This document shows positions 4,052 through 44,413 of a stretch of DNA of 44,413 nt, one piece after another. The translations under genes and the position numbers were made by a program. Source of the stretch: an uncultured Methanosarcinales archaeon (lineage in GTDB: Archaea > Nanobdellota > Nanobdellia > Woesearchaeales > GW2011-AR9); assembly GCA_964639875.1 (NCBI GenBank), contig CAZXEM010000003.1, forward strand, positions 1 through 44,413. Direction: 5' to 3'. How positions within the stretch are numbered: the first letter of the stretch is position 1; every line of letters starts with the position of its first letter. Below the pieces are notes generated by a model. It saw only the letters and a program-made list of their open reading frames with translations. It was not told the origin of the DNA and ran no database searches.

Positions 4052-5815
4052 TTAATTATAATACAACTTGCCTTCTGCTCTTTGTTCACGATCTTTCACC
4101 GAACCAACTTTATTGATCCGAGGCCGATGACTACTAGGATCTCTTCTTAAAGAAATGCCTAACTCTTCCAAAAATAAGTTCATTCCTTCAACCATATCAA
4201 AAGGTCCTTGCAACAAACCGTTCTTTGCAGGCTCACCAGTAAAAACAATTAACCTATCAGAAAGGTAATCCAAAAACATTAAATCATGATCAACAACAAG
4301 AACTGCAACTTCTCTCTCTGCAGTTAAGTTCTTAATAACTTTAGAAATTAATAACCTTTGTTCAACATCAAGATAAGCAGAAGGTTCATCTAAAAGGAAC
4401 AATTCGGCTTCTTGACTTAAACAATGAACAATAGAAACTTTTTGCAATTCTCCACCAGACAATTCAGACATTTTCTTCATTAACAATTTATCAATTTCTA
4501 AAGGAACAATTAGTTGATTTTGATAATTTTTTATCGCTTCATCCAAGAATTCCATTACTAGTTGGTCAGATGCAGTTTCTAAGTACTGAGGCTTATAAGC
4601 AACTTTTACTTCTTCTTGAAGTGTTCCGGAATCAGGTTTGATTAATCCGGCCAACAGTTTAGTAAAAGAAGTTTTACCAATACCATTCTCACCAAGAACA
4701 CCAACAATTTCATTTTTATGCAAAACCCCTTCACCAGTTTCAAAATTAAATTTTCCTAACTTTTTCTTAAGATTCTTCCAAGAAATTAATTCTTCAGGTT
4801 TACCAACTTGTCTTTGTTGAACTTTTTCAAATTTAATAGGATGACTTCTGAACCGAACATTTTCTTCTTTCAAATACCCTTCTAAAAAAGAGTTTATTCC
4901 TTCCCGAGAACTTTTCAATCCGGAAACTATCCCGTAAGCCGCTTCCTGACCATACATTAAATTTAATAAATCAGTCATGTAATCCAAAATAATTAAATCG
5001 TGTTCAATTACTACTACTGCAGTTTCTTTATTTACTAAAGAACGAATAAATTTAGAAGCGTTAACTCTCTGTTTAATATCTAGATAAGAGCTAGGCTCAT
5101 CAAAGAGATAAATATTAGCTTTCTTTAAAACAGCAGCAGCAATTGCTACTCTTTGTAATTCACCACCAGAAATTTTACTAATTTCTGTATCTAAAAAATT
5201 TGTTAATTGTAAAGATTTAGCAACTTCGTCCAATTTACCCAGTTCATCAATTTTAGTTAACAACTTTTTTACTGTCCCTTTAAACTGTTTAGGGATCAAA
5301 TCTACCTGTTGTGGTTTGTAAGATAAAGTAATTTCTTTCTTTTCCAATTTTTCTAAGAAATTTTGCATCTCTGTGCCTTTAAAGTATTTGATAATCTCTT
5401 TAAATTCTGGCTTTTTATTCCACTCACCCAAATTTGGTTCAAGAATGCCAGCAATAATTTTCAAAGCAGTAGATTTACCAATTCCATTTTTTCCCAAAAT
5501 TCCTGTAACTTGATTAAATAATGGTGTTGGTAAAGAAAATAATTCAAAAGAATTTTCACCATAACGATGAACAGGGTCTTTGTTTAAAGCTTCAGGAAGA
5601 TTAATTATTTGAATAGCTTCAAACGGGCAACGATGAGAACAAATCCCACAACCGGTGCAAAGCAGTTCATCTATCTTAGCCTTTTTATGCACCTCGTGCG
5701 GTAAAATACAATCTTTCCCTGTCCGGTTAACTGGACACAGTTTTTGACATAAATATTCTCCACATTCTCGATGATGACATTTTTCCTTTTCAATGATAGC
5801 GATCCGTTTCTTCAT
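4052..5815 (-). CDS. ABCE1: ABCE1 / RNase L inhibitor-type ribosome recycling ATPase
   Basis: N-terminal double 4Fe-4S Cys clusters (CHHRECGEYLCQKLCP; CTGCGICSHRCP). Two ABC cassettes with Walker A GKNGIGKST / GENGIGKTS and signatures SGGELQR / SGGELQK. Length 587 aa. Confidence 0.95.
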   Translation of the reverse strand: MKKRIAIIEKEKCHHRECGEYLCQKLCPVNRTGKDCILPHEVHKKAKIDELLCTGCGICSHRCPFEAIQIINLPEALNKDPVHRYGENSFELFSLPTPLFNQVTGILGKNGIGKSTALKIIAGILEPNLGEWNKKPEFKEIIKYFKGTEMQNFLEKLEKKEITLSYKPQQVDLIPKQFKGTVKKLLTKIDELGKLDEVAKSLQLTNFLDTEISKISGGELQRVAIAAAVLKKANIYLFDEPSSYLDIKQRVNASKFIRSLVNKETAVVVIEHDLIILDYMTDLLNLMYGQEAAYGIVSGLKSSREGINSFLEGYLKEENVRFRSHPIKFEKVQQRQVGKPEELISWKNLKKKLGKFNFETGEGVLHKNEIVGVLGENGIGKTSFTKLLAGLIKPDSGTLQEEVKVAYKPQYLETASDQLVMEFLDEAIKNYQNQLIVPLEIDKLLMKKMSELSGGELQKVSIVHCLSQEAELFLLDEPSAYLDVEQRLLISKVIKNLTAEREVAVLVVDHDLMFLDYLSDRLIVFTGEPAKNGLLQGPFDMVEGMNLFLEELGISLRRDPSSHRPRINKVGSVKDREQRAEGKLYYN

Positions 5816-5913: not shown

Positions 5914-7026
5914 ATGACTACAAAAGTTAATCCCTACGAAGTTGAAGGTAAAATGAATTATGATAAACTTATTACAAAATTTGGAATAAAGAAATTAACC
6001 TCAACTGATTTGAAAAGGATTAAAAAAAATACGGGAGAAATTCACCCCTATCTAAAAAGAGAAATATTTTTTGCTAATCGGGATCTTAACTGGTGCTTAG
6101 ATGAATACGAGAAAGGTAACAAATTCTTCTTATATACTGGTTGTGGCCCTTCTGGACCATTACATTTAGGTCATTTAACAACCTGGATGTTTACTAAATG
6201 GTTACAAGAAAAATTTGATGTTGACTTATGGTTTCAATTTACTGATGATGAAAAATTCCTCTTTAAAAATAAATCCTACGAGGAAATTCAAGAATGGACT
6301 CATGACAATATGTTAGATGTTATTGCCTTAGGATTTGACCCTAAAAAAACGCATTTCCTGATTGACACTAAACATGCAGGGATTATGTATCCTGAAGCAA
6401 TTAAAGTTGCTAAGAAAATAACATTTTCAACCATTAAAGCAGCTTTTGGATTTAATGATTCTAATAATATTGGTAGTATTTTTTATACTTCAATGCAAAC
6501 AGTACCTGCATTTTTACCAAACGTTTTAAGAAATGAAAAACGACCTTGTTTAATTCCGTTAGGTATTGATCAAGATCCTCATTTCCGTGTTAGCAGAGAT
6601 GTAATTCAAAAATTAGGGCACCACAAGCCAGCAATATTGCATGCTAAATTTATGCCACCAATGACTGGTCCTGAAGGAAAAATGAGTAGTTCTAGTCCAG
6701 AAACAGCGATCTTAACTACAGATGGTCCAAAAATAGTTAAAAATAAAATTAATAAGCACGCATTTTCTGGTGGACAACCAACAATTGAAGAACATCGTAA
6801 AAAAGGTGGTAATCCGGACATTGATATATCTTTTCAATGGTTAAGATATTTTGAAGAAGATGATGATAAACTTGCACAAATTCATAAAGATTATAAATCA
6901 GGTGAATTATTATCTGGCGAGTTAAAAAAAATTTTAATCGATAAGGTTAATTCATTCTTATCAGAACATCAAGAACGTAGGAAAAATGCTCACAAATTAA
7001 TTGATAAGTATATTTACAAAATTTAA
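5914..7026 (+). CDS. trpS: tryptophanyl-tRNA synthetase, archaeal/eukaryal type
   Basis: Class I motifs GPLHLGHL (HIGH-type) and KMSSS (KMSKS-type). The FQFTDDEKF motif is typical of archaeal/eukaryal TrpRS. Length 370 aa. Confidence 0.9.
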   Translation: MTTKVNPYEVEGKMNYDKLITKFGIKKLTSTDLKRIKKNTGEIHPYLKREIFFANRDLNWCLDEYEKGNKFFLYTGCGPSGPLHLGHLTTWMFTKWLQEKFDVDLWFQFTDDEKFLFKNKSYEEIQEWTHDNMLDVIALGFDPKKTHFLIDTKHAGIMYPEAIKVAKKITFSTIKAAFGFNDSNNIGSIFYTSMQTVPAFLPNVLRNEKRPCLIPLGIDQDPHFRVSRDVIQKLGHHKPAILHAKFMPPMTGPEGKMSSSSPETAILTTDGPKIVKNKINKHAFSGGQPTIEEHRKKGGNPDIDISFQWLRYFEEDDDKLAQIHKDYKSGELLSGELKKILIDKVNSFLSEHQERRKNAHKLIDKYIYKI

Positions 7027-7336: not shown

Positions 7337-8281
7337 CTAAATCCCTTTCAGCACTTCTTTCGGATCTTTTCCATCAAACAAGATTTCATGTAATCCGGTT
7401 ATCAAAGGCAGCTTTAATCCTGTTTTTTCTTTCAGACCCATCGCTTCTTTTAATGTTGTAACACCTTCAGCAACCATTGCCATTTCATCAATAACTTCTT
7501 TAAGTGGACGGCCTTTACCAACTTCTACACCAACAGAACGGTTTCTTGAATGAGGACTAGTAGAAGTTACAATCATATCACCAATTCCAGCTAAACCATA
7601 GAAAGTTTCTTCTTTTCCACCTAAAGCCACGCCAACATTTTTAATCTCTTCCAGACCACGCGTCATGATATAGGCTTTAGCGTTATCTCCTAAGCCCATC
7701 CCATCTAAGACACCAACAAACACAGCAAGAATATTTTTCAAAGCAGCAGCAACTTGCACGCCAATAAGGTCATCAGTTAAATCAATTTTAAGATTATCAG
7801 AAACAAACACTTTCTTAAGATCTTCTCTTCCTGTACCACCGGCAAGAACAATCCCTGAATACATTTCTTTACAAACTTCTTCTGCATGTGTTGGCCCATA
7901 TAAACAATAAACTTCTCCAGAAACTTTTTCTTTAACCAGATCTGTTAAAAACTTTAAATCTGGACCGAACCCTTTTGAACAAATTACAATTGCTTGATCC
8001 TCAACAAACTCCTTAGCTTGTCCAATAGTCTTCTCAACATGATTAGATGGAACCACTAACAAAACCAATTCAAAATCAACTAAAACATCTTCTATTTTAT
8101 GAGAAACAAAAATATTTTCTGGCAATTTTGCTTCAGGAAGTAATTTACAAATTCTTTGTTCCTGCATTTCTTTTGCTTGTTCTTCAAAGAATTCCCAAAC
8201 TTTTACAGAATGACCATTATTGTTTAAATGTACAGCTAACGCTGTACCCCAACTTCCTCCACCTAAAATTGCGATTTTCAT
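7337..8281 (-). CDS. gpsA: NAD(P)H-dependent sn-glycerol-3-phosphate dehydrogenase (GpsA type)
   Basis: N-terminal Rossmann MKIAILGGGSWGTALA. 314 aa, colinear with GpsA (central ...SKG..., C-terminal helical domain with AEG/P...). Confidence 0.85.
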   Translation of the reverse strand: MKIAILGGGSWGTALAVHLNNNGHSVKVWEFFEEQAKEMQEQRICKLLPEAKLPENIFVSHKIEDVLVDFELVLLVVPSNHVEKTIGQAKEFVEDQAIVICSKGFGPDLKFLTDLVKEKVSGEVYCLYGPTHAEEVCKEMYSGIVLAGGTGREDLKKVFVSDNLKIDLTDDLIGVQVAAALKNILAVFVGVLDGMGLGDNAKAYIMTRGLEEIKNVGVALGGKEETFYGLAGIGDMIVTSTSPHSRNRSVGVEVGKGRPLKEVIDEMAMVAEGVTTLKEAMGLKEKTGLKLPLITGLHEILFDGKDPKEVLKGI

Positions 8282-9729: not shown

Positions 9730-11654
9730 CCTTCAACCACCACAATTTCCATATTAACTTTTTTATTAATTTGATAATCATAGGTTATTTCTGCTTCATA
9801 CTCTTTAAAAATATAATTAGGAGGATTTTTTAAATTATCAGGTACTGTTTTAATAACACAAGTTGGTAAATAAATTATTTTATTATATTTTGAACTTCCT
9901 TTTACAGGAGTAGTACTCCCAACACATTCTGGTTTTACACCTAATAAATCTGCAGGTTCGTCTCCGCTTAAATCAATATTATATTTACTAACTTCTAAAA
10001 TGGTTCCAGAACCAACATTTTCAATATTGGAAGATAATAACATCCCCGTTGAACCTTCAATAATTGGTTTTTCAATCGGGTTACCAAACGCAAAGTTCAT
10101 TCTTGCAAAATCTGCAGGGGCTTGAGATTTAGCATTTGATCCTGAAAAATGTGCTTTCATAATTTTTGGGATCCATTCTTTTTTCCAAACCTCATCTTTC
10201 TCATCACCAATAAATGCCCGTTGTAACCTTGATTTTGTAACTAAATTAATAAAAGTAGCATTATAATTAATTTCATAGCTTCCATTAAGGTATTCGTCAT
10301 TTGGCAATTCAGGTTCACAAATAAAAGATCTACTAATTTCTAGTTCTCCATTAATTGAAAGAACAGCAGGATCATCAGAATTACCCCCACTAACTTTTCC
10401 AAGATAGTTACCGTCTCGTATCCTATTATTAACAAAATTACATGTAATAATAACTTCTATACCCTCTTGTTTACGTGGATTTTTTATTTCCAATTCAATC
10501 GGAAATTTAGCAGTTGTTTTTCCCCCTACTTGAAATGTTTTTTTCGGAAAATAATCACTAACAACCAGTTTAGCTGTTGTTGGCATTTTTATTGTTGGAT
10601 CAATACTACCAGAAATTTGTGTAATTCCTTTATTTCTTTCTTCTTGTTGTTTAACCACACATTTCTTGTAAGAAGTAGTTCCTGGCTTGTACCTTTCTTC
10701 ATGTTCACAGATGTATTCTATCTCTGCAATTTCTTTCTTTTCCTCAACACATTGAGGTAAGTCAGTATATCTTCCTTCAATAAAACATTTCCAATTTAAT
10801 ACTGCAGGATTAGCACTATTTTTTCCTAACTCAGCTCTAGCATCTGCTTGTGTTTTTTCAAATTCAGTCATTGTTGGAAGAACTCCATCTTGAGCATAAG
10901 CAACGCTAGGCATTGAAGGAATAAGAATTGTAAAAATAATGTATAAAATCCCCACAATTTTAGCAGTGTTGATTAAAAAAGCACCAGGGCCTTCCTTTTT
11001 TGTTGGTAAGGTCATTAAACCAAAGAAAGCCCACCAAGGCATGAAAAGGACTAAATTTTTTAGAACCGGAGTGCTAGTTAATCCAAACTCTTTTGCTATA
11101 AAAGAAACTAGGCCTACGTCCATAAATAAAAAAAATACAGGTAAAAGTCCGTAAAGTTCAGGTTTAATCGCTTGACCTTTAGTAAAGATTAAAGGAACAA
11201 TGTAAAACAAAGCACTAAAAGTTCCATAATACATTAAAAATGTAGATTCTCCACTTGAACCAAAAACATACCACCAAACAAAAAAAATAATCATTGGAAT
11301 AAAAACTGCCCAACGATCAGTATCTAACTTGCTTGATAATGCATAACCTGCTAAAATGAATAAAAGTAAAGAAAGAATAGTAGTTACTCCAGAAATGCCC
11401 ATTACTCTTAAAGTATAATGGATAACTCCCAAAATAATCATTAAAAAACTTACCGTCCTTAAAGCACCAGTAGTTTCTTTTATAGCTGTAGCACCAGCAG
11501 CAAAACCAGCTCCACTTATTGCTGAACCGCCCGCACTAACTGCAGAACCAACACCACCAGCAGCTTTTCCTAAAGCTCCACCCGCAACACTACCAATACC
11601 TTTTGCAGCACCACTACCTTTTAAAGCGCCCATTAGTCCTGAAAGTTTACCCAT
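9726..11654 (-). CDS. polytopic membrane protein with Gly/Ala/Ser-rich N-terminus and large extracellular Cys-containing C-terminal domain
   Basis: I use the ATG at 11654, preceded by GAGGTG; the ORF track extends to 11687. About 65 aa of low-complexity G/A/S, then roughly 7 hydrophobic helices, then about 380 aa that are beta-rich with 4 to 8 Cys. Confidence 0.65.
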   Translation of the reverse strand: MGKLSGLMGALKGSGAAKGIGSVAGGALGKAAGGVGSAVSAGGSAISGAGFAAGATAIKETTGALRTVSFLMIILGVIHYTLRVMGISGVTTILSLLLFILAGYALSSKLDTDRWAVFIPMIIFFVWWYVFGSSGESTFLMYYGTFSALFYIVPLIFTKGQAIKPELYGLLPVFFLFMDVGLVSFIAKEFGLTSTPVLKNLVLFMPWWAFFGLMTLPTKKEGPGAFLINTAKIVGILYIIFTILIPSMPSVAYAQDGVLPTMTEFEKTQADARAELGKNSANPAVLNWKCFIEGRYTDLPQCVEEKKEIAEIEYICEHEERYKPGTTSYKKCVVKQQEERNKGITQISGSIDPTIKMPTTAKLVVSDYFPKKTFQVGGKTTAKFPIELEIKNPRKQEGIEVIITCNFVNNRIRDGNYLGKVSGGNSDDPAVLSINGELEISRSFICEPELPNDEYLNGSYEINYNATFINLVTKSRLQRAFIGDEKDEVWKKEWIPKIMKAHFSGSNAKSQAPADFARMNFAFGNPIEKPIIEGSTGMLLSSNIENVGSGTILEVSKYNIDLSGDEPADLLGVKPECVGSTTPVKGSSKYNKIIYLPTCVIKTVPDNLKNPPNYIFKEYEAEITYDYQINKKVNMEIVVVEG

Positions 11655-24550: not shown

Positions 24551-24552
24551 AT

Positions 24553-24777
24553 TTAAATTTGTTTTCTTGTTTTCTCATCTAATCCTACTGAATTTGGAGA
24601 ATAGTCTAAAGCATCCAAATGATCTAACCGTCTTAAATCATATTCATTAACAACTCTTAAAGAAGCCACAGTAGGATCAATGTTTACTGGTTCAGTCAGT
24701 TCCGCTTGATTATTGTCAAAAGACAAGTAAAGCTCTTCATATTCATTAGGTCCACAAAATGTTTTATCATCAATCAT
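24553..24777 (-). CDS. hypothetical small acidic protein
   Basis: The ORF-track start at 24795 is TTG. The first ATG at 24777 lies about 30 nt downstream of ATATATATAAC. No motifs. Confidence 0.4.
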   Translation of the reverse strand: MIDDKTFCGPNEYEELYLSFDNNQAELTEPVNIDPTVASLRVVNEYDLRRLDHLDALDYSPNSVGLDEKTRKQI

Positions 24778-24879
24778 CGTTATACAAGTAAACAATATAT
24801 GTTATATATATTTTACGTTACTCCAGATTATATGTTTAAAGCAATAAAGTTTAAATAAAACCTTCTTTTCAAGCTAATC

Positions 24880-25044
24880 ATGGCTAAATGTAACATTTGT
24901 GGAAATAAAATTGCAGAATTATTTCTAGGAAAATTGAAAGGTACAATTATCAAAAAGGAAGGCAAGAATAAACAATACACTATTTGTTTTGAATGTCAAA
25001 AGAAATTTCCGAGTAAAGAAGAATTGTTAAAACAGATTAAATAA
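24880..25044 (+). CDS. 54-aa zinc-ribbon protein (not in ORF track)
   Basis: Translation: MAKCNICGNKIAELFLGKLKGTIIKKEGKNKQYTICFECQKKFPSKEELLKQIK. Two CxxC pairs. TATA-like AGTTTAAATAAAAC about 25 nt upstream of the ATG. Confidence 0.55.
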   Translation: MAKCNICGNKIAELFLGKLKGTIIKKEGKNKQYTICFECQKKFPSKEELLKQIK

Positions 25045-25137
25045 GTTAATATTCGTGCCCCAGCAAATGGCGTCCCATTTGATAAGACAGGCGACATGCG
25101 CTTCGCTTAGTCCCATTAAAAAAATAAAAAAAATTAT

Positions 25138-25223
25138 GCCCCTGTGGCTTAGTAGCTATAGCGACTGCCTCGTATTTAAGAAAAGAAAGCAGTAGATCGG
25201 GAGTGCAACTCTCCCCAGGGGCT
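25138..25223 (+). tRNA. tRNA-Thr(CGU)-like gene with 13-nt insertion 3' of position 37 and non-canonical D/T loops
   Basis: Acceptor GCCCCUG/CAGGGGC, D arm GCU(U)-AGUAGCUA-(U)AGC, anticodon arm ACUGC-CUCGUA[UUUAAGAAAAGAA]A-GCAGU, T arm GGGAG-UGCAACU-CUCCC. G at position 55 and no GG in the D-loop are atypical. No CCA is encoded. Confidence 0.55.
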
Positions 25224-25224
25224 T
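25215..25224 (+). repeat. direct repeat copy 1 (CCAGGGGCTT), 3' acceptor end of the tRNA-Thr-like gene
   Basis: An identical 10-mer recurs at 25282-25291. Confidence 0.8.
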
Positions 25225-25281
25225 GAGCAAAGCGAAAGAAACTGGGGAGCCCAAAGGGAAAACTATCCCTTTGTATGCTCA

Positions 25282-25291
25282 CCAGGGGCTT
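25282..25291 (+). repeat. direct repeat copy 2 (CCAGGGGCTT), followed by TTTTT
   Basis: Identical to 25215-25224. The T5 run (25290-25294) is a plausible archaeal termination signal. Confidence 0.8.
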
Positions 25292-25302
25292 TTTATATCA
25301 AA

Positions 25303-40501: not shown

Positions 40502-41659
40502 TCAAAAAAGTGAGTATAAAATTCCTAAAGCAAACATAACCATCAAGAGAACACCTAACACTTTTGGAAGATGAATGGCATATTCTGGTTTTCGGTCACC
40601 CTGTTTTTTAGCTTTCCAAAACATTAAGATGATAATGATCCCTTCAATACCTCCAGCAATACCTCCCGTAATTGCTAAAGCTTGAATGAACGAGGTCATT
40701 CCCGAAATTCCAATTAAGAATGGAATAGAAACAGTAAGAAGAAATGCAACATTTCTGGTTGTGTGTAAATCAATATCATAAACCCATAATAATGCTAACC
40801 CTAAAGCTAGAAAAGAAGTACTCATCGAAAATATTGCGAACAAGTTCCCTAACAGTTCCATTATTTTTCCACCAACAACATCACCTAAAGTAGTAGTAGC
40901 AATCTGACCAGTACTTGCCCCGGTTACTCCTACAACTACAAAAGCAAACAAAGCGTAAGTAATTAAAGGAACACTACTACCAATGATAATCGCTTTCTTG
41001 ATCAACTTTTTATTATCAGTACAAATAGATTTCATTTCTGGGATAGCGGCAGCACCAACAAAAGCAAATAAGATTACCCCGTAAGGAAAAAACAATTGAG
41101 TTTTATCATAACCAGTAAGGTTTCCAGAATCAATATGAAAAGTTCCCCAGATAATGATGGTGATGATAATTATTAACATTATCGCTCCGAATATTATTTC
41201 TGTTTTCCCAACTGATTGTAATCCTAAATAAATCAAAGTTGAAAGGAAAACAAAAAAGCAAATACTGAAAATTAAAGCAACGTTAATTTCAAATCCAATA
41301 AAAGATAATGACTTTTGTCCTAAACCAAAAATGTCAGCTAAGACTTTCCCTCCACCAATAAAATATGCAGTTAACGCACCATAAATTCCAAAAACAATAG
41401 AAAAAGTCATAATCCTTTTTCCCCATTTTCCTAAATATTTTTCTGCATATCCCGGAAGTTGATGTCTGCCTTTTGTTCTTAAAGCTATTTCACCAATACA
41501 AAGATTAATTATTAAAACAGCAACACCAAGAATAGCTAAAATAATCATTCCGGGAATAAAACCGGATTTAGAAATGGCGTAAGGGATACCTAAAACTCCT
41601 GCACCAATAATTGTTCCAACTAACGTTGCCGTAGCGGTAATTAATTTTTTATCTACCAT
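40502..41659 (-). CDS. amino acid permease (Trp/Tyr-permease or Aa_trans-like, about 11 TM)
   Basis: The N-terminus ATLVGTIIGAGVLGIPYAISKSGF is typical of this transporter family. 385 aa, hydrophobic throughout. Confidence 0.75.
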   Translation of the reverse strand: MVDKKLITATATLVGTIIGAGVLGIPYAISKSGFIPGMIILAILGVAVLIINLCIGEIALRTKGRHQLPGYAEKYLGKWGKRIMTFSIVFGIYGALTAYFIGGGKVLADIFGLGQKSLSFIGFEINVALIFSICFFVFLSTLIYLGLQSVGKTEIIFGAIMLIIIITIIIWGTFHIDSGNLTGYDKTQLFFPYGVILFAFVGAAAIPEMKSICTDNKKLIKKAIIIGSSVPLITYALFAFVVVGVTGASTGQIATTTLGDVVGGKIMELLGNLFAIFSMSTSFLALGLALLWVYDIDLHTTRNVAFLLTVSIPFLIGISGMTSFIQALAITGGIAGGIEGIIIILMFWKAKKQGDRKPEYAIHLPKVLGVLLMVMFALGILYSLF

Positions 41660-41910: not shown

Positions 41911-42546
41911 ATGAAATATACTGAAGAATTAGCTGAAATTATCGGCATCATGTTAGGAGATGGATGTTTGTGTAAAGCCAAAAAAGGAAATAACACCTAC
42001 AGCACAATAATTACTTCTGGGAAAAATGAAAAGCATTGGATTAATTACGTTAAGAATCTATTTGCAGACTACTTTAATCAAACTTTTAAAATAGTAGAAA
42101 TAAAATATGGATTACAAGCAAGAAATTATAGGGGTAATGTTGCTGAACACCTAATAAAAGCTGGCTTACACCATGGAAACAAAATAAACAACAAAGTAGA
42201 AATTCCGCCATGGATATTTCAAAAGAGAAAATTCTTATTAAAAGCAGTGCAAGGTTTATTTGATACAGATGGGTGTGTTTACAACAAATACGGAAACTAT
42301 GCACAAATAGAATTTAAGTTTGGTTGTATTGAAACAACAAGTTCTGTTCACAAAGCCGTTAGTAGTTTAGGATTCAACCCCACAAAAATACAAAGACAAA
42401 TCCATAGTATTACTGGAAGATTTCTGTGGAGATTTTATCTTTCAAGACAAGGAGAAATAGACTTATTTTTTCAGAAAGTGAAACCCAAGAATCAAAAGCA
42501 TCAATTAAGATACAAAAAAATAAAAAGTGGGGACACTGGGATTTGA
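41911..42546 (+). CDS. double-motif LAGLIDADG homing endonuclease
   Basis: Motif 1 LAEIIGIMLGDGCL and motif 2 LLKAVQGLFDTDGCVY are about 100 aa apart. 211 aa, the size class of single-chain I-DmoI-type enzymes. GGAGGT SD. Confidence 0.85.
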   Translation: MKYTEELAEIIGIMLGDGCLCKAKKGNNTYSTIITSGKNEKHWINYVKNLFADYFNQTFKIVEIKYGLQARNYRGNVAEHLIKAGLHHGNKINNKVEIPPWIFQKRKFLLKAVQGLFDTDGCVYNKYGNYAQIEFKFGCIETTSSVHKAVSSLGFNPTKIQRQIHSITGRFLWRFYLSRQGEIDLFFQKVKPKNQKHQLRYKKIKSGDTGI

Positions 42547-42698
42547 ATTTCTGAACAATAAGCATTCACTTACCATTTCCCAGATCTAAGGCTGACTTCA
42601 GGGAAAGATTATTCATCGCTTTTCAGCTCATCTCTCCATTACTGGAGGCCCCGATTCTACCAGACTGTACGGACTTAAATCCTTTATACTATGTCCCC
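42528..42698 (-). tRNA. tRNA-Trp(CCA) gene with three insertions (putative introns)
   Basis: Minus strand: acceptor GGGGACA/UGUCCCC + A73; D-loop AGUCUGGUA; anticodon arm GGGGC-CUCCAG[48 nt]A-GCCUU; T arm CUGGG[31 nt]UUCAAAU-CCCAG. An extra roughly 19 nt lies between positions 9 and 14. TATA-like TTAATAAA sits 25 nt upstream, and T5 follows the 3' end. Confidence 0.6.
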
Positions 42699-42722: not shown

Positions 42723-42730
42723 TTTATTAA
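42723..42730 (-). promoter_or_regulatory. TATA-like box (TTAATAAA on minus strand) for tRNA-Trp
   Basis: 25 nt upstream of the predicted tRNA 5' end at 42698. Confidence 0.4.
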
Positions 42731-42804
42731 GTTTTTTGTTTTTTTATATCCATCTTCTGAATAATACAAATCTTTATATTTTAAACCTCTTTATTTAGGA
42801 AATC

Positions 42805-43413
42805 ATGAAAACAACTTACTTAATCTTAACGGCAATTCTTAGTGCAACTTTAAGTTTTGGTTGTAATAAAACAGAACCAGTTCAGAAAGAAGCAAGCAAA
42901 TTAGAAGAAACCATTAGTAAAACAGAAAAATCAAGTGAACTTGAAAAAGCTCTTGCTAATGAAGAAGAAGCTGTTACTAAATGTGAAAAAAGAAGGGGTA
43001 AGGTATTTATTAGCTACGGCAGTAAAGATTGTGCCCAAGGATACGGAGCCAGAGAAATTGTAACTTGTCTGACTGGATCAAATCTTAGTGTTAATAGTTT
43101 TGGTTTTCCATGTGATAACATTCCAGAGAATAGCGAGGAGAGATGGATAGCAAATTGCCAAGAAGTTTCTGGTGAAGTAGTACAAAAGTATGAAGCAGAA
43201 AAACATCTTTACAAAGATTCTTCTAAGGACAACCAAAGTTGCTTTTGGGTTAGAGAATGCGTTCCAGAAGACCCAAAACTAAGTTGGGGACCATTAGCTG
43301 ACCTCTTTAAACAAATTCCTTGTGACTTTAGTTCTACTGCTAGTTTAAAAGTCAAAGAAATAAAACATTTCTCAAATCCTTGTTATTGCTCCATTGGTGG
43401 CGGCCCTATTTAA
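42805..43413 (+). CDS. predicted lipoprotein, Cys-rich
   Basis: Signal ending in LSFGC (lipobox), then a Glu/Lys-rich linker and a domain with about 12 Cys. Confidence 0.6.
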   Translation: MKTTYLILTAILSATLSFGCNKTEPVQKEASKLEETISKTEKSSELEKALANEEEAVTKCEKRRGKVFISYGSKDCAQGYGAREIVTCLTGSNLSVNSFGFPCDNIPENSEERWIANCQEVSGEVVQKYEAEKHLYKDSSKDNQSCFWVRECVPEDPKLSWGPLADLFKQIPCDFSSTASLKVKEIKHFSNPCYCSIGGGPI

Positions 43414-43459: not shown

Positions 43460-44413
43460 ATGATCCAATTAGATGGTAAATATGGAACTGGAGGCGGAGC
43501 TTTAGTCAGAACAGCTCTTGCCCTTTCTACACTAACCGGCAAACCATTCTCTGTTGACAATATCCGGGCAGGTAAAGGAGATGGTGGAGGATTAAAACCG
43601 CAGCATTTGCATGCGATTAAAGCCCTCAAAGAGATATGCGGTGCAGAAACTAATCAAGTAGAACTGGGAACAAAAGAATTAACTTTCCAGCCAGGAAAAA
43701 TCAAACGAGGAGTTTATGAAATTGACATTGGTACAGCGGGAAGTATTACTTTATTCTTGCAAGCAATAATTCTTCCTTGTATGTTTGCTCCGGGAAAAGT
43801 CACTTTGAAAGTCAAAGGTGGTACTTGTGGTAAATGGCAAGCTTCAGTTTATTATTTGCAAAATGTTTTACTACCGCATTTACAAAGGTTTGTAGAAAAA
43901 ATTGAATTAAAAGTTATTAAGAAAGGTTACTATCCTAAAGGTGGTGGAGAAGTTCAATTGGAAATAACTCCTAAATTTAAATTAAATGAACATGATTCAT
44001 TTGCTGCTTTTTATGAAGACTTAAATTTTAAAACTGCAAAAATAAAATTAACTTCCCAGGGAGAGTTAGAACAAGTTCGTGGCATTGTAAATTTATCTTC
44101 AGAACTAGAAGATAAAGAGATAGGAGAAAGAATTAAAAGATCTGCTGAAGGAAGTTTAAAAGAATTAGGAGCCCCAATCAATATTAGAATTGAATATGCA
44201 AATACGTTAAATGTTGGTGGTGAGATAGTTCTTTGGGCAATTTTTAGTCAAAATGGAAAAGTTGATTTTGATAACCCTCTGATTCTTGGTGGAGATGCTT
44301 TAATTGAAAAAGGAAAACGTTCAGAAGAAATTGGTCAAGAAGCTGCAGAGATGTTAAAGAAAGAAATATCTTCTAATGCCGCTGTCGATCGAAATTTAGC
44401 TGACCAATTAATT
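43460..44413 (+). CDS. rtcA: RNA 3'-terminal phosphate cyclase RtcA (3' end runs off the window)
   Basis: My own translation from the ATG at 43460: MIQLDGKYGTGGGALVRTALALSTLTGKPFSVDNIRAGKGDGGGLKPQHLHAIKAL...IDIGTAGSITLFLQAI. This is colinear with RtcA, including the catalytic His region. In frame to the window end. Confidence 0.85.
   Translation, partial: MIQLDGKYGTGGGALVRTALALSTLTGKPFSVDNIRAGKGDGGGLKPQHLHAIKALKEICGAETNQVELGTKELTFQPGKIKRGVYEIDIGTAGSITLFLQAIILPCMFAPGKVTLKVKGGTCGKWQASVYYLQNVLLPHLQRFVEKIELKVIKKGYYPKGGGEVQLEITPKFKLNEHDSFAAFYEDLNFKTAKIKLTSQGELEQVRGIVNLSSELEDKEIGERIKRSAEGSLKELGAPINIRIEYANTLNVGGEIVLWAIFSQNGKVDFDNPLILGGDALIEKGKRSEEIGQEAAEMLKKEISSNAAVDRNLADQLI

Follow-up and report, generated by a model that had tools for sequence, protein, structure and literature searches.

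Does the minus strand near the end of an archaeal metagenomic contig hold a working tRNA gene, or the remains of one? The locus in question occupies positions 42698..42528 of contig CAZXEM010000003.1 (assembly GCA_964639875.1), of which positions 1 to 44,413, the whole stretch analysed, are called the window here. The window is densely coding at 31.5% G+C and carries the archaeal markers aIF5B, an RLI-type ABC ATPase, a Cbf5-type pseudouridine synthase and ribosomal protein S3Ae. An initial annotation had read the locus as a tRNA-Trp(CCA) gene from which three insertions (in the D-arm, at 37/38 and in the T-arm) have to be removed, had been unable to draw clean bulge-helix-bulge (BHB) motifs for them, and had left decay of the gene open. 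The results presented below indicate that this is very probably a functional, spliced tRNA-Trp(CCA) gene of a low-GC marine DPANN archaeon of the Woesearchaeota/Nanoarchaeota type.

A tRNA-Trp gene interrupted by three introns

Read on the minus strand, 42698..42528 contains a 73-nucleotide (nt) tRNA-Trp(CCA) split by three introns, at 15/16, 37/38 and 53/54, in the order GGGGACAUAGUAUAA / AGGAUUUAAGUCCGUACAG / UCUGGUAGAAUCGGGGCCUCCAG / UAAUGGAGAGAUGAGCUGAAAAGCGAUGAAUAAUCUUUCCCUGAAGUC / AGCCUUAGAUCUGGG / AAAUGGUAAGUGAAUGCUUAUUGUUCAGAAA / UUCAAAUCCCAGUGUCCCCA, after which a run of U begins. Its parts and flanking elements are as follows.

42723..42730, minus strand: TATA-like box UUAAUAAA, at -32 to -25, read by eye from the sequence
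42684..42698, minus strand: exon 1, tRNA positions 1-15 (GGGGACA UA GUAU AA), matching exactly the tRNA-Trp 5' end of relatives L010, L011, L012 and others
42665..42683, minus strand: intron 1, 19 nt, at 15/16 in the D-loop (A-GGAU-UUAA-GUCC-GUAC-AG), of the relaxed HBh' type
42642..42664, minus strand: exon 2, positions 16-37, with the remainder of the D-loop, the D-stem 3' strand GAAU, C26, the anticodon stem strand GGGGC and the loop CUCCAG
42594..42641, minus strand: intron 2, 48 nt, at the canonical 37/38 site, homologous to the tRNA-Trp intron of other archaea
42579..42593, minus strand: exon 3, positions 38-53, with A38, GCCUU, the variable loop AGAU and the T-stem 5' strand CUGGG
42548..42578, minus strand: intron 3, 31 nt, at 53/54 in the T-arm, a textbook hBHBh' intron
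42528..42547, minus strand: exon 4, positions 54-73, with the T-loop UUCAAAU, CCCAG, UGUCCCC and the discriminator A, CCA not being encoded
42513..42527, minus strand: T-rich stretch CUUUUUAUUUUUUUG, directly past the discriminator and alike in relatives

The acceptor stem is formed by 42698-42692 (GGGGACA) and 42535-42529 (UGUCCCC), with all pairs perfect, and the discriminator A at 42528 is directly followed by the T-run CTTTTTATTTTTTTG; the T-rich stretch as a whole is the likely transcription stop. An A/T box of the AUAAAU or UUUAAAU type can be read from the sequence about 30 nt upstream of the tRNA in all relatives. Exon 2 supplies G18, G19 and the anticodon CCA. After splicing the D-arm becomes GUAU-AAUCUGGUA-GAAU, with an A15-U48 Levitt pair available, and the 73-mer has an acceptor stem of 7/7 pairs, a T-stem of 5/5 and an anticodon stem of 5/5 (including two G·U), together with the conserved tertiary nucleotides U8, A14, G18 and G19 (within UCUGGUA) and the T-loop UUCAAAU (U54, U55, C56 and A58).

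ARAGORN found no tRNA in the native 44-kb window or the region, intron options and a lowered threshold included, and the unspliced locus gave no Rfam match at gathering thresholds, the E-value scan returning sub-threshold noise and a weak C/D match. When 42641-42594 and 42578-42548 were removed a tRNA-Trp(CCA) was called, and when the third intron (42683-42665) was also removed the call was a 73-nt tRNA-Trp(cca). The proposed need for three excisions was borne out, and the borders initially given for introns 2 and 3 were exact. A tryptophan-tRNA ligase gene (5914-7026, plus strand; NF008927, 523 bits against a cut-off of 478) lies about 35 kb from the locus in the same window, which implies a need for tRNA-Trp. 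A scan for T-loop and acceptor sequences revealed no other hidden tRNAs in the window.

Bulge-helix-bulge motifs in register with the splice sites

The introns were examined with a script of the BHB rule, namely a central helix (H) of 4 base pairs (bp), two 3-nt bulges, and a cut after the second bulge nucleotide of each strand; the helices flanking this core are denoted h and h'. In intron 1 all four pairs of H are formed (GUAU:GUAC), the bulges are AA|A and AG|U, h' has 4 bp (GGAU:GUCC) and h has none. Intron 3 likewise displays a 4/4 H (UCUG:CAGA), with bulges GG|A and AA|U, an h of 2 bp, and an h' of 10 bp according to the script or of 9 bp around a 6-nt loop when drawn by hand. In intron 2 three of the four H pairs are formed (CUCC:GAAG, with a C34·A mismatch), the bulges are AG|U and UC|A, the 5-bp anticodon stem serves as h, and h' consists of 1 bp, followed by an internal loop and then 8 bp; the C34·A mismatch recurs in Woese-type, Thermoplasmata and Bathyarchaeia loci. 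All three motifs, which could not be drawn initially, stand in exact register with splice sites that were set independently by homology. As a background, 1.29 million random site pairs of the window were scored: a 4/4 H with an h' of at least 4 bp occurred in 8e-4 of them, and a 4/4 H with an h' of at least 3 bp and an h of at least 2 bp in 3.5e-4, the overall range of the chance estimate being 3.5e-4 to 9e-4.

For intron 1, the length of 19 nt and the hairpin GGAU-UUAA-GUCC reported initially were retained, and the borders, previously placed at about 42685-42667, were moved to 42683-42665; this is the only register that restores the D-arm start GUAU-AA of relatives without intron 1. The minimum free energy (MFE) of the 171-nt precursor is -53.2 kcal/mol (z = -3.4), in a structure in which the acceptor stem, the whole of the intron 1 motif and the hairpin of intron 3 are formed.

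The same exons with other intron sets in relatives

When one genome per species was scanned for the 20-nt 3' exon (exon 4), the exact 20-mer turned up in 32 loci, all in archaeal assemblies. ARAGORN recognises 28 of these as tRNAs and identifies 25 as tRNA-Trp with the canonical intron. Further forms came from a metagenome scan and from the contexts of LAGLIDADG homologues. Among these relatives, which stem from metagenome-assembled genomes (MAGs) of Woesearchaeota and Nanoarchaeota and from metagenomes, the same exons are found with 0, 1, 2 or 3 introns, at four sites overall. Two Woesearchaeota MAG loci (L010 and L011) read GGGGACAUAGUAUAA-CCUGGCUAGUAUAG, without a D- or T-arm intron, and both are recognised by ARAGORN unedited. 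A Nanoarchaeota MAG locus (L012) has a 29-nt intron exactly at 15/16, with the same GUAC-AG 3' end and another h'. Three introns placed as in the window are present in L044/L046 and L050; the set 15/16 + 37/38 in L045, L049, L051, L052 and L059; the set 22/23 + 37/38 in L039/L041, L043/L047 and L058; 15/16, 22/23 and 37/38 together in L053; and 22/23, 37/38 and 53/54 together in L054. BHB motifs are in register in the introns of all these relatives (L058 and L059 having been parsed by eye), and the parsing gave no definite splice sites for the D-arm insert of a further locus, L056.

The spliced product of the window is 82-100% identical to the tRNA-Trp of nine relatives, with exon identities of 73/73 to L050, 70/74 to L039, 69/74 to both L044 and L043, 67/74 to L012, and 61-62/74 to L010 and L011. 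L043 and L044 have identical mature tRNAs and different intron sets. The 15/16 intron recurs in L012, L045, L049, L051, L052, L053 and L059 with the same H and a covarying h', which takes the forms GGA:UCC, CCU:AGG, CCA:UGG and UUC:GAA while H and the bulges stay fixed. The T-arm introns of L050 and L044 show two differences each; three of these four convert a G·U into an A-U pair and the fourth lies in the loop. An unrelated intron sequence at 53/54 in L054 also forms 4/4 H pairs.

The comparison of the window with L050 also separates exons from their surroundings: the exons are identical at 73/73 positions, whereas the flanking coding DNA is identical at 496/659 (75%; Fisher 7e-9). The tRNA exons are under purifying selection. 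The D-stem A-A mismatch that had been pointed out initially is indeed present (A12·A23, with the 3' strand GAAU), but its value as a sign of decay is lost, since the GAAU strand recurs in L050, L045, L049, L039, L051, L053 and L054 and marks a tolerated lineage trait; the whole family has a weak D-stem (GUAU:GUAU).

A related architecture was seen in another tRNA. Two loci in MAGs labelled Methanosarcinales (L008, about 7520-7681, and L019, about 4585-4720) encode tRNA-Phe(GAA) and share the 3' exon 20-mer with tRNA-Trp. Both have a perfect BHB intron at 53/54, with bulges GG|A and AA|U and a sequence unrelated to intron 3 of the window, and a short insert in the anticodon loop as well. In L008 a LAGLIDADG_3 open reading frame (ORF) runs antisense into the 3' end of the tRNA-Phe.

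A proposed splicing pathway and its alternatives

Transcription, cleavage, ligation and methylation at the tRNA-Trp locus are inferred only; the analysis itself shows how the sequence is laid out, that the motifs are in register, and that there is homology, covariation and purifying selection. In the proposed pathway, a pre-tRNA of about 171 nt would be transcribed from the TATA-like box at about -30 and would end at the T-run. An archaeal splicing endonuclease would then cut the three BHB motifs at 15/16, 37/38 and 53/54, an RtcB-type ligase would join the four exons into the 73-nt tRNA, and CCA would be added post-transcriptionally. The intron segments GUAC and CAGA are predicted to pair with what will become the 5' strands of the D- and T-stems, forming the 15/16 and 53/54 motifs; because they occupy these strands, the cloverleaf would fold only after those introns have left.

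Several points weigh against a functional gene. The D-stem is weak, consisting of G·U, U-A, A·A and U·G, and the cloverleaf is not the MFE structure of the mature sequence (-18.2 vs -25.1 kcal/mol); a non-cloverleaf MFE structure was also obtained for all compared relatives, those accepted by ARAGORN included. In the precursor, the conformer with all three BHB motifs lies about 15 kcal/mol above the MFE, a gap that is a caveat and not a refutation because the nearest-neighbour model penalises bulges heavily. Intron 1 has no outer helix h, and an endonuclease tolerating relaxed motifs would therefore be needed. Scanning 42 of the window's 43 listed ORFs with at least 100 amino acids (aa) revealed neither endA nor rtcB, and a second, uninterrupted tRNA-Trp gene may exist elsewhere in the genome.

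One possible explanation for such an interrupted gene is that it is a decaying pseudogene, its insertions being junk and its function being supplied by another tRNA-Trp gene. The A12·A23 mismatch and the two G·U in the anticodon stem would suit this explanation, as would the failure of every tool to recognise the unspliced gene, the MFE structure that is not a cloverleaf, and the presence of a mobile-element-type gene next door. We nevertheless consider it unlikely: decay does not agree with exons that remain completely identical to those of L050 between flanking genes that have drifted to 75%, with in-register BHB motifs that show compensatory change in all three insertions, with an A23 variant shared by several lineages, with the retention of the TATA-like box and the T-run, or with a clade whose forms at the syntenic site are all interrupted. 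An assembly or chimera artefact, which a metagenomic source might suggest, is scarcely credible, as a 241-nt region is identical in six contigs from separate metagenome assemblies, made from different samples with different assemblers, and diverged yet collinear versions exist in L044 and L050.

Two further alternatives concern intron 1 alone, and we regard each of them as very improbable. In one, only introns 2 and 3 are removed and the 19-nt D-loop insert is kept as an extra hairpin of the mature tRNA; ARAGORN does call a tRNA-Trp under many choices of intron 1 borders, and the insert does lack the outer helix h. Against this, GUAU:GUAC and both 3-nt bulges are invariant in eight versions with covarying h' helices and lengths between 17 and 30 nt, which is the pattern of a splicing signal and not of a structural arm, and L010 and L011 have a normal D-loop at this place. 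In the other, intron 1 is spliced at the GUA(U/C) repeat (9/10 to 12/13), the junction considered in the initial annotation, to give the D-arm GUAC-AGUCUGGUA-GAAU. This would create a C13-G22 pair and a slightly more stable cloverleaf (-19.9 vs -18.2 kcal/mol), but borders of this type form 0-1/4 central-helix pairs, 42683-42665 alone yielding a BHB motif; the product would differ at positions 13 and 15 from all relatives without intron 1 (all GUAU-AA), and the A15-U48 Levitt pair would become G15·U48. Taken together, these comparisons favour a functional gene from which all three introns are spliced.

A methylation-guide-like element in intron 2

Intron 2, whose homologues are present throughout the Woese-type genes, contains a conserved core with the geometry of a kink-turn (K-turn), composed of the following elements.

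42613..42638, minus strand: K-turn/guide core, its layout invariant in 12 related introns
42638-42634, minus strand: putative guide UGGAG, with the spacer AG next to it
42631-42628, minus strand: D-type box AUGA, abutting the stem
42627-42618, minus strand: stem-loop GCU-GAAA-AGC, its stem covarying in relatives
42617-42613, minus strand: C-type box GAUGA, with RAU as a 3-nt bulge and then GA

The same order was found in 12/12 introns: UGGAG, two nt, N[U/A]GA, a stem-loop with a covarying stem of 2-6 bp, and RAU-GA. The stem pairs include GCU:AGC, GUC:GAC, GCA:UGC, GCC:GGC and GGCA:UGCC; the core pairs were tabulated by script, MAFFT having misaligned cores of differing loop length. This matches K-turn geometry, with the stem directly next to the D-type box and three bulged nucleotides ahead of GA on the C-type strand. 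UGGAG is complementary to C32-A36, and in all 12 introns the nucleotide five upstream of the D-type box faces C34. The predicted guide duplex has 5-6 bp (UGGAG:CUCCA), compared to about 10 bp in standard C/D guides, and Rfam gave intron 2 a weak match to sR58 (15.2 bits against a threshold of 55, E about 1). A second box pair with a guide for position 39 was also looked for in intron 2, and neither a 5' C box nor complementarity to positions 38-45 was found; the sequence ahead of the 3' CUGA is engaged instead in pairs with the 5' portion of the intron. The standard two-guide box C/D arrangement was tried and rejected for this intron, as its first CUGA (in GCUGAAAAGC) lacks conservation and falls within a covarying hairpin.

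From this layout we propose that intron 2 is the ancient tRNA-Trp intron reduced to one K-turn and a short guide, which would direct 2'-O-methylation of C34, and that it is not a member of the full two-guide family. PMC11408192, which refers to d'Orval 2001 and Singh 2004, describes the euryarchaeal tRNA-Trp intron as a box C/D RNA guiding Cm34 and Um39; in the Thermoplasmata loci the order, read by hand, is C, guide(39), D', C', guide(34), D. Intron 2 resembles the Haloferax/Pyrococcus intron in its gene, in its 37/38 site, in its C/D-type K-turn and in having C34 at the fifth nucleotide upstream of the D-type box. It differs from the euryarchaeal form in having one box pair and one guide of 5-6 bp, with no guide for position 39 (G39 here), and in its layout: the guide and the D-type box stand at the front, and a hairpin closes the box pair. 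Such an intron, with a single K-turn and a single guide, hints at the minimal size to which a C34 methylation guide can be reduced.

A LAGLIDADG gene family beside tRNA-Trp

The gene next door to the tRNA is a free-standing one.

41911..42546, plus strand: double-motif LAGLIDADG ORF that converges on the tRNA and overlaps exon 4, on the opposite strand, by its final 19 nt

Its product matches Pfam LAGLIDADG_2 (PF03161) and LAGLIDADG_3 (PF14528) above their cut-offs. The motif GDGC does not vary among 10 aligned homologues, in which D118 and D120 of GLFDTDGC are also nearly invariant; no match to the sequences of solved structures (PDB, searched with phmmer) was obtained at E up to 1. L044 encodes a homologue in the same position (10187-10870) with only 27% identity, although the DNA of the permease gene beside it is 83% identical.

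A database search returned 106 homologues, and in 13/13 places checked tRNA-Trp adjoins or contains the LAGLIDADG gene. Twelve of these places could be seen at the DNA level: in ten the gene is convergent at the tRNA 3' end (the window, L044, L050 in part, L051-L054, L056, L058 and L059), and in L055 and L057 it lies on the tRNA strand. The thirteenth, P0019, was assigned by the protein tail only, the pointers to a tRNA being a nearby permease gene and a tail that resembles antisense tRNA; P0017 has the gene order permease-LAGLIDADG-RtcA, as at the window. In L057 the ORF is itself carried by a BHB intron of some 617 nt, located at 25/26 and having a 4/4 H (UAUG:CAUA) and an h' of 9 bp. In 63/81 close homologues the tail matches, by pattern, the antisense translation of the tRNA 3' end, in three pattern classes assigned to three reading frames, two of which were confirmed at the DNA level. 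A conserved overlapping frame of the LAGLIDADG C-terminus with the tRNA was rejected as a functional feature, as the tails are spread over three reading frames.

The D-arm is interrupted in 12/12 endonuclease-bearing loci with DNA; of nine Woese-type loci that lack a LAGLIDADG gene, the D-arm is interrupted in five and uninterrupted in four (Fisher 0.021, with loci that are not independent). A strict link between the gene and the T-arm (53/54) intron was considered as well and is refuted in both directions, by L051, L052, L053, L056, L058 and L059, which have the gene without a T-arm intron, and by L019, which has a T-arm intron without the gene.

One tentative explanation for these associations, which we hold to be possible although on balance doubtful, is that the neighbouring gene represents a lineage of homing endonucleases that specifically target the tRNA-Trp gene. 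The enzyme would cut alleles with an uninterrupted D-arm to anticodon-stem region, near 25/26, the site of the L057 intron, and double-strand-break repair would co-convert the flanking DNA. BHB introns at 15/16, at 22/23 and perhaps at 53/54 would then be interruptions that protect an allele from cleavage, or else passengers or relics of introns that bear an endonuclease. In favour of homing, the same mature tRNA is encoded by L043, which has an intron at 22/23 and no endonuclease gene, and by L044, which has the gene and introns at 15/16 and 53/54; against it stand five relatives without an endonuclease gene that also have D-arm introns, and the phylogenetic non-independence of the sample.

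Additional observations were made at individual members of the family. In L055, from a Bathyarchaeia MAG, a diverged copy of roughly the first 55 nt of the downstream tRNA-Trp, D-loop intron included, lies ahead of the ORF (1876-1935 vs 2723-2782), an arrangement that looks like a relic of the conversion of an intron-encoded gene into a free-standing one. The tRNA-Trp genes of L057 and L055 contain roughly 30 additional nt that separate the anticodon stem from the T-stem (about 2690-2725 and 2852-2880, respectively), an insert that may be a variable-region intron. In L045 (4282-4611) and L049 (3433-3762), both otherwise without an endonuclease gene, a stretch upstream of tRNA-Trp is 54-57% identical to the N-terminal 110 aa, the non-LAGLIDADG part, of the long homologue P0069.

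The literature searched held no link between LAGLIDADG genes and archaeal tRNA-Trp. As a double-motif protein tied to one conserved RNA gene, the family resembles the I-DmoI-type LAGLIDADG proteins of archaeal rRNA introns; unlike these, its host gene is a tRNA, and most members are antisense to it and overlap its 3' end. The L057 member is encoded within a BHB intron and the others are free-standing beside an intron-bearing target gene, which recalls the "collaborative homing" known from phages, in which a free-standing endonuclease cooperates with an intron (PMC2790892, PMC6083498). If homing is indeed at work, it would explain at the DNA level how archaeal tRNA introns at non-canonical sites are gained and turned over, and would be an archaeal BHB counterpart of collaborative homing. 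The LAGLIDADG neighbour would thereby offer a testable route of intron spread, which has been missing since "transposition" was proposed for Thermoproteales.

Gene neighbourhood

Two more genes frame the locus.

40502-41659: Trp/Tyr-family permease, on the other side of tRNA-Trp from RtcA
43460-44413, plus strand: RtcA (RNA 3'-terminal phosphate cyclase), running off the window end

RtcA neighbours tRNA-Trp in the window and in L001-L006, L044, L043, L039, L050, L051 and L053, and in L035 a permease-like ORF directly follows tRNA-Trp. The segment between RtcA and the tRNA (42743-43413, with an ORF of 202 aa at 42805-43413 that matches no family) is missing from the syntenic L044; in L050 its place is taken by a 446-aa ORF that looks by eye like a multi-pass membrane protein, and in L051 and P0017 methyltransferase genes stand there instead. 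As the segment is absent or replaced in these four, the tRNA 5' flank is a variable insertion spot. Elsewhere in the window, 750 nt downstream of aIF5B (24551-25302) contain no ORF of at least 100 aa and no Rfam match at the gathering threshold.

Significance and comparison with known systems

Standard finders miss this gene, and genomes of the marine DPANN clade will consequently seem to lack tRNA-Trp; inferences of completeness and of auxotrophy for such MAGs should allow for hidden multi-intron tRNAs. With 0-3 introns at four sites, two populations with the same mature tRNA and different intron sets among them, the clade forms a natural series for the gain and loss of non-canonical tRNA introns.

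Multi-intron tRNAs and disrupted tRNA genes of DPANN were already known. The maximum stated is three introns per tRNA, for Thermoproteales (reviewed in PMC4033280). A survey of DPANN lineages, a Woesearchaeota and a Pacearchaeota MAG included, described an EndA with an L3 loop together with more disrupted tRNA genes, and its missing tRNAs hinted at disrupted genes that had gone undetected (PMC5829648). The present locus is one such hidden gene, and it reaches the stated three-intron maximum. No description of a tRNA-Trp with introns at 15/16, 37/38 and 53/54, or of its variants, was found in the literature searched.

As presented in PMC4033280, which reviews Sugahara et al. 2007/2008, the multi-intron tRNAs of Thermoproteales share with this gene up to three BHB or relaxed introns at canonical and non-canonical sites, D- and T-arms included, and an intron removal that precedes cloverleaf formation. 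Unlike them, the lineage described here is low-GC marine DPANN and not hyperthermophilic Crenarchaeota, and closely related populations differ in the intron sites that are occupied. The endonuclease would presumably differ as well: by analogy with the DPANN literature (PMC5829648) it is expected to be an alpha4 enzyme with an L3 loop, unlike the (alpha-beta)2 enzyme with a CSL loop of Thermoproteales. The disrupted tRNA genes of other DPANN (ARMAN, with its epsilon2 EndA, PMC3239211; PMC5829648) likewise belong to ultrasmall archaea and likewise carry non-canonical and multiple introns.

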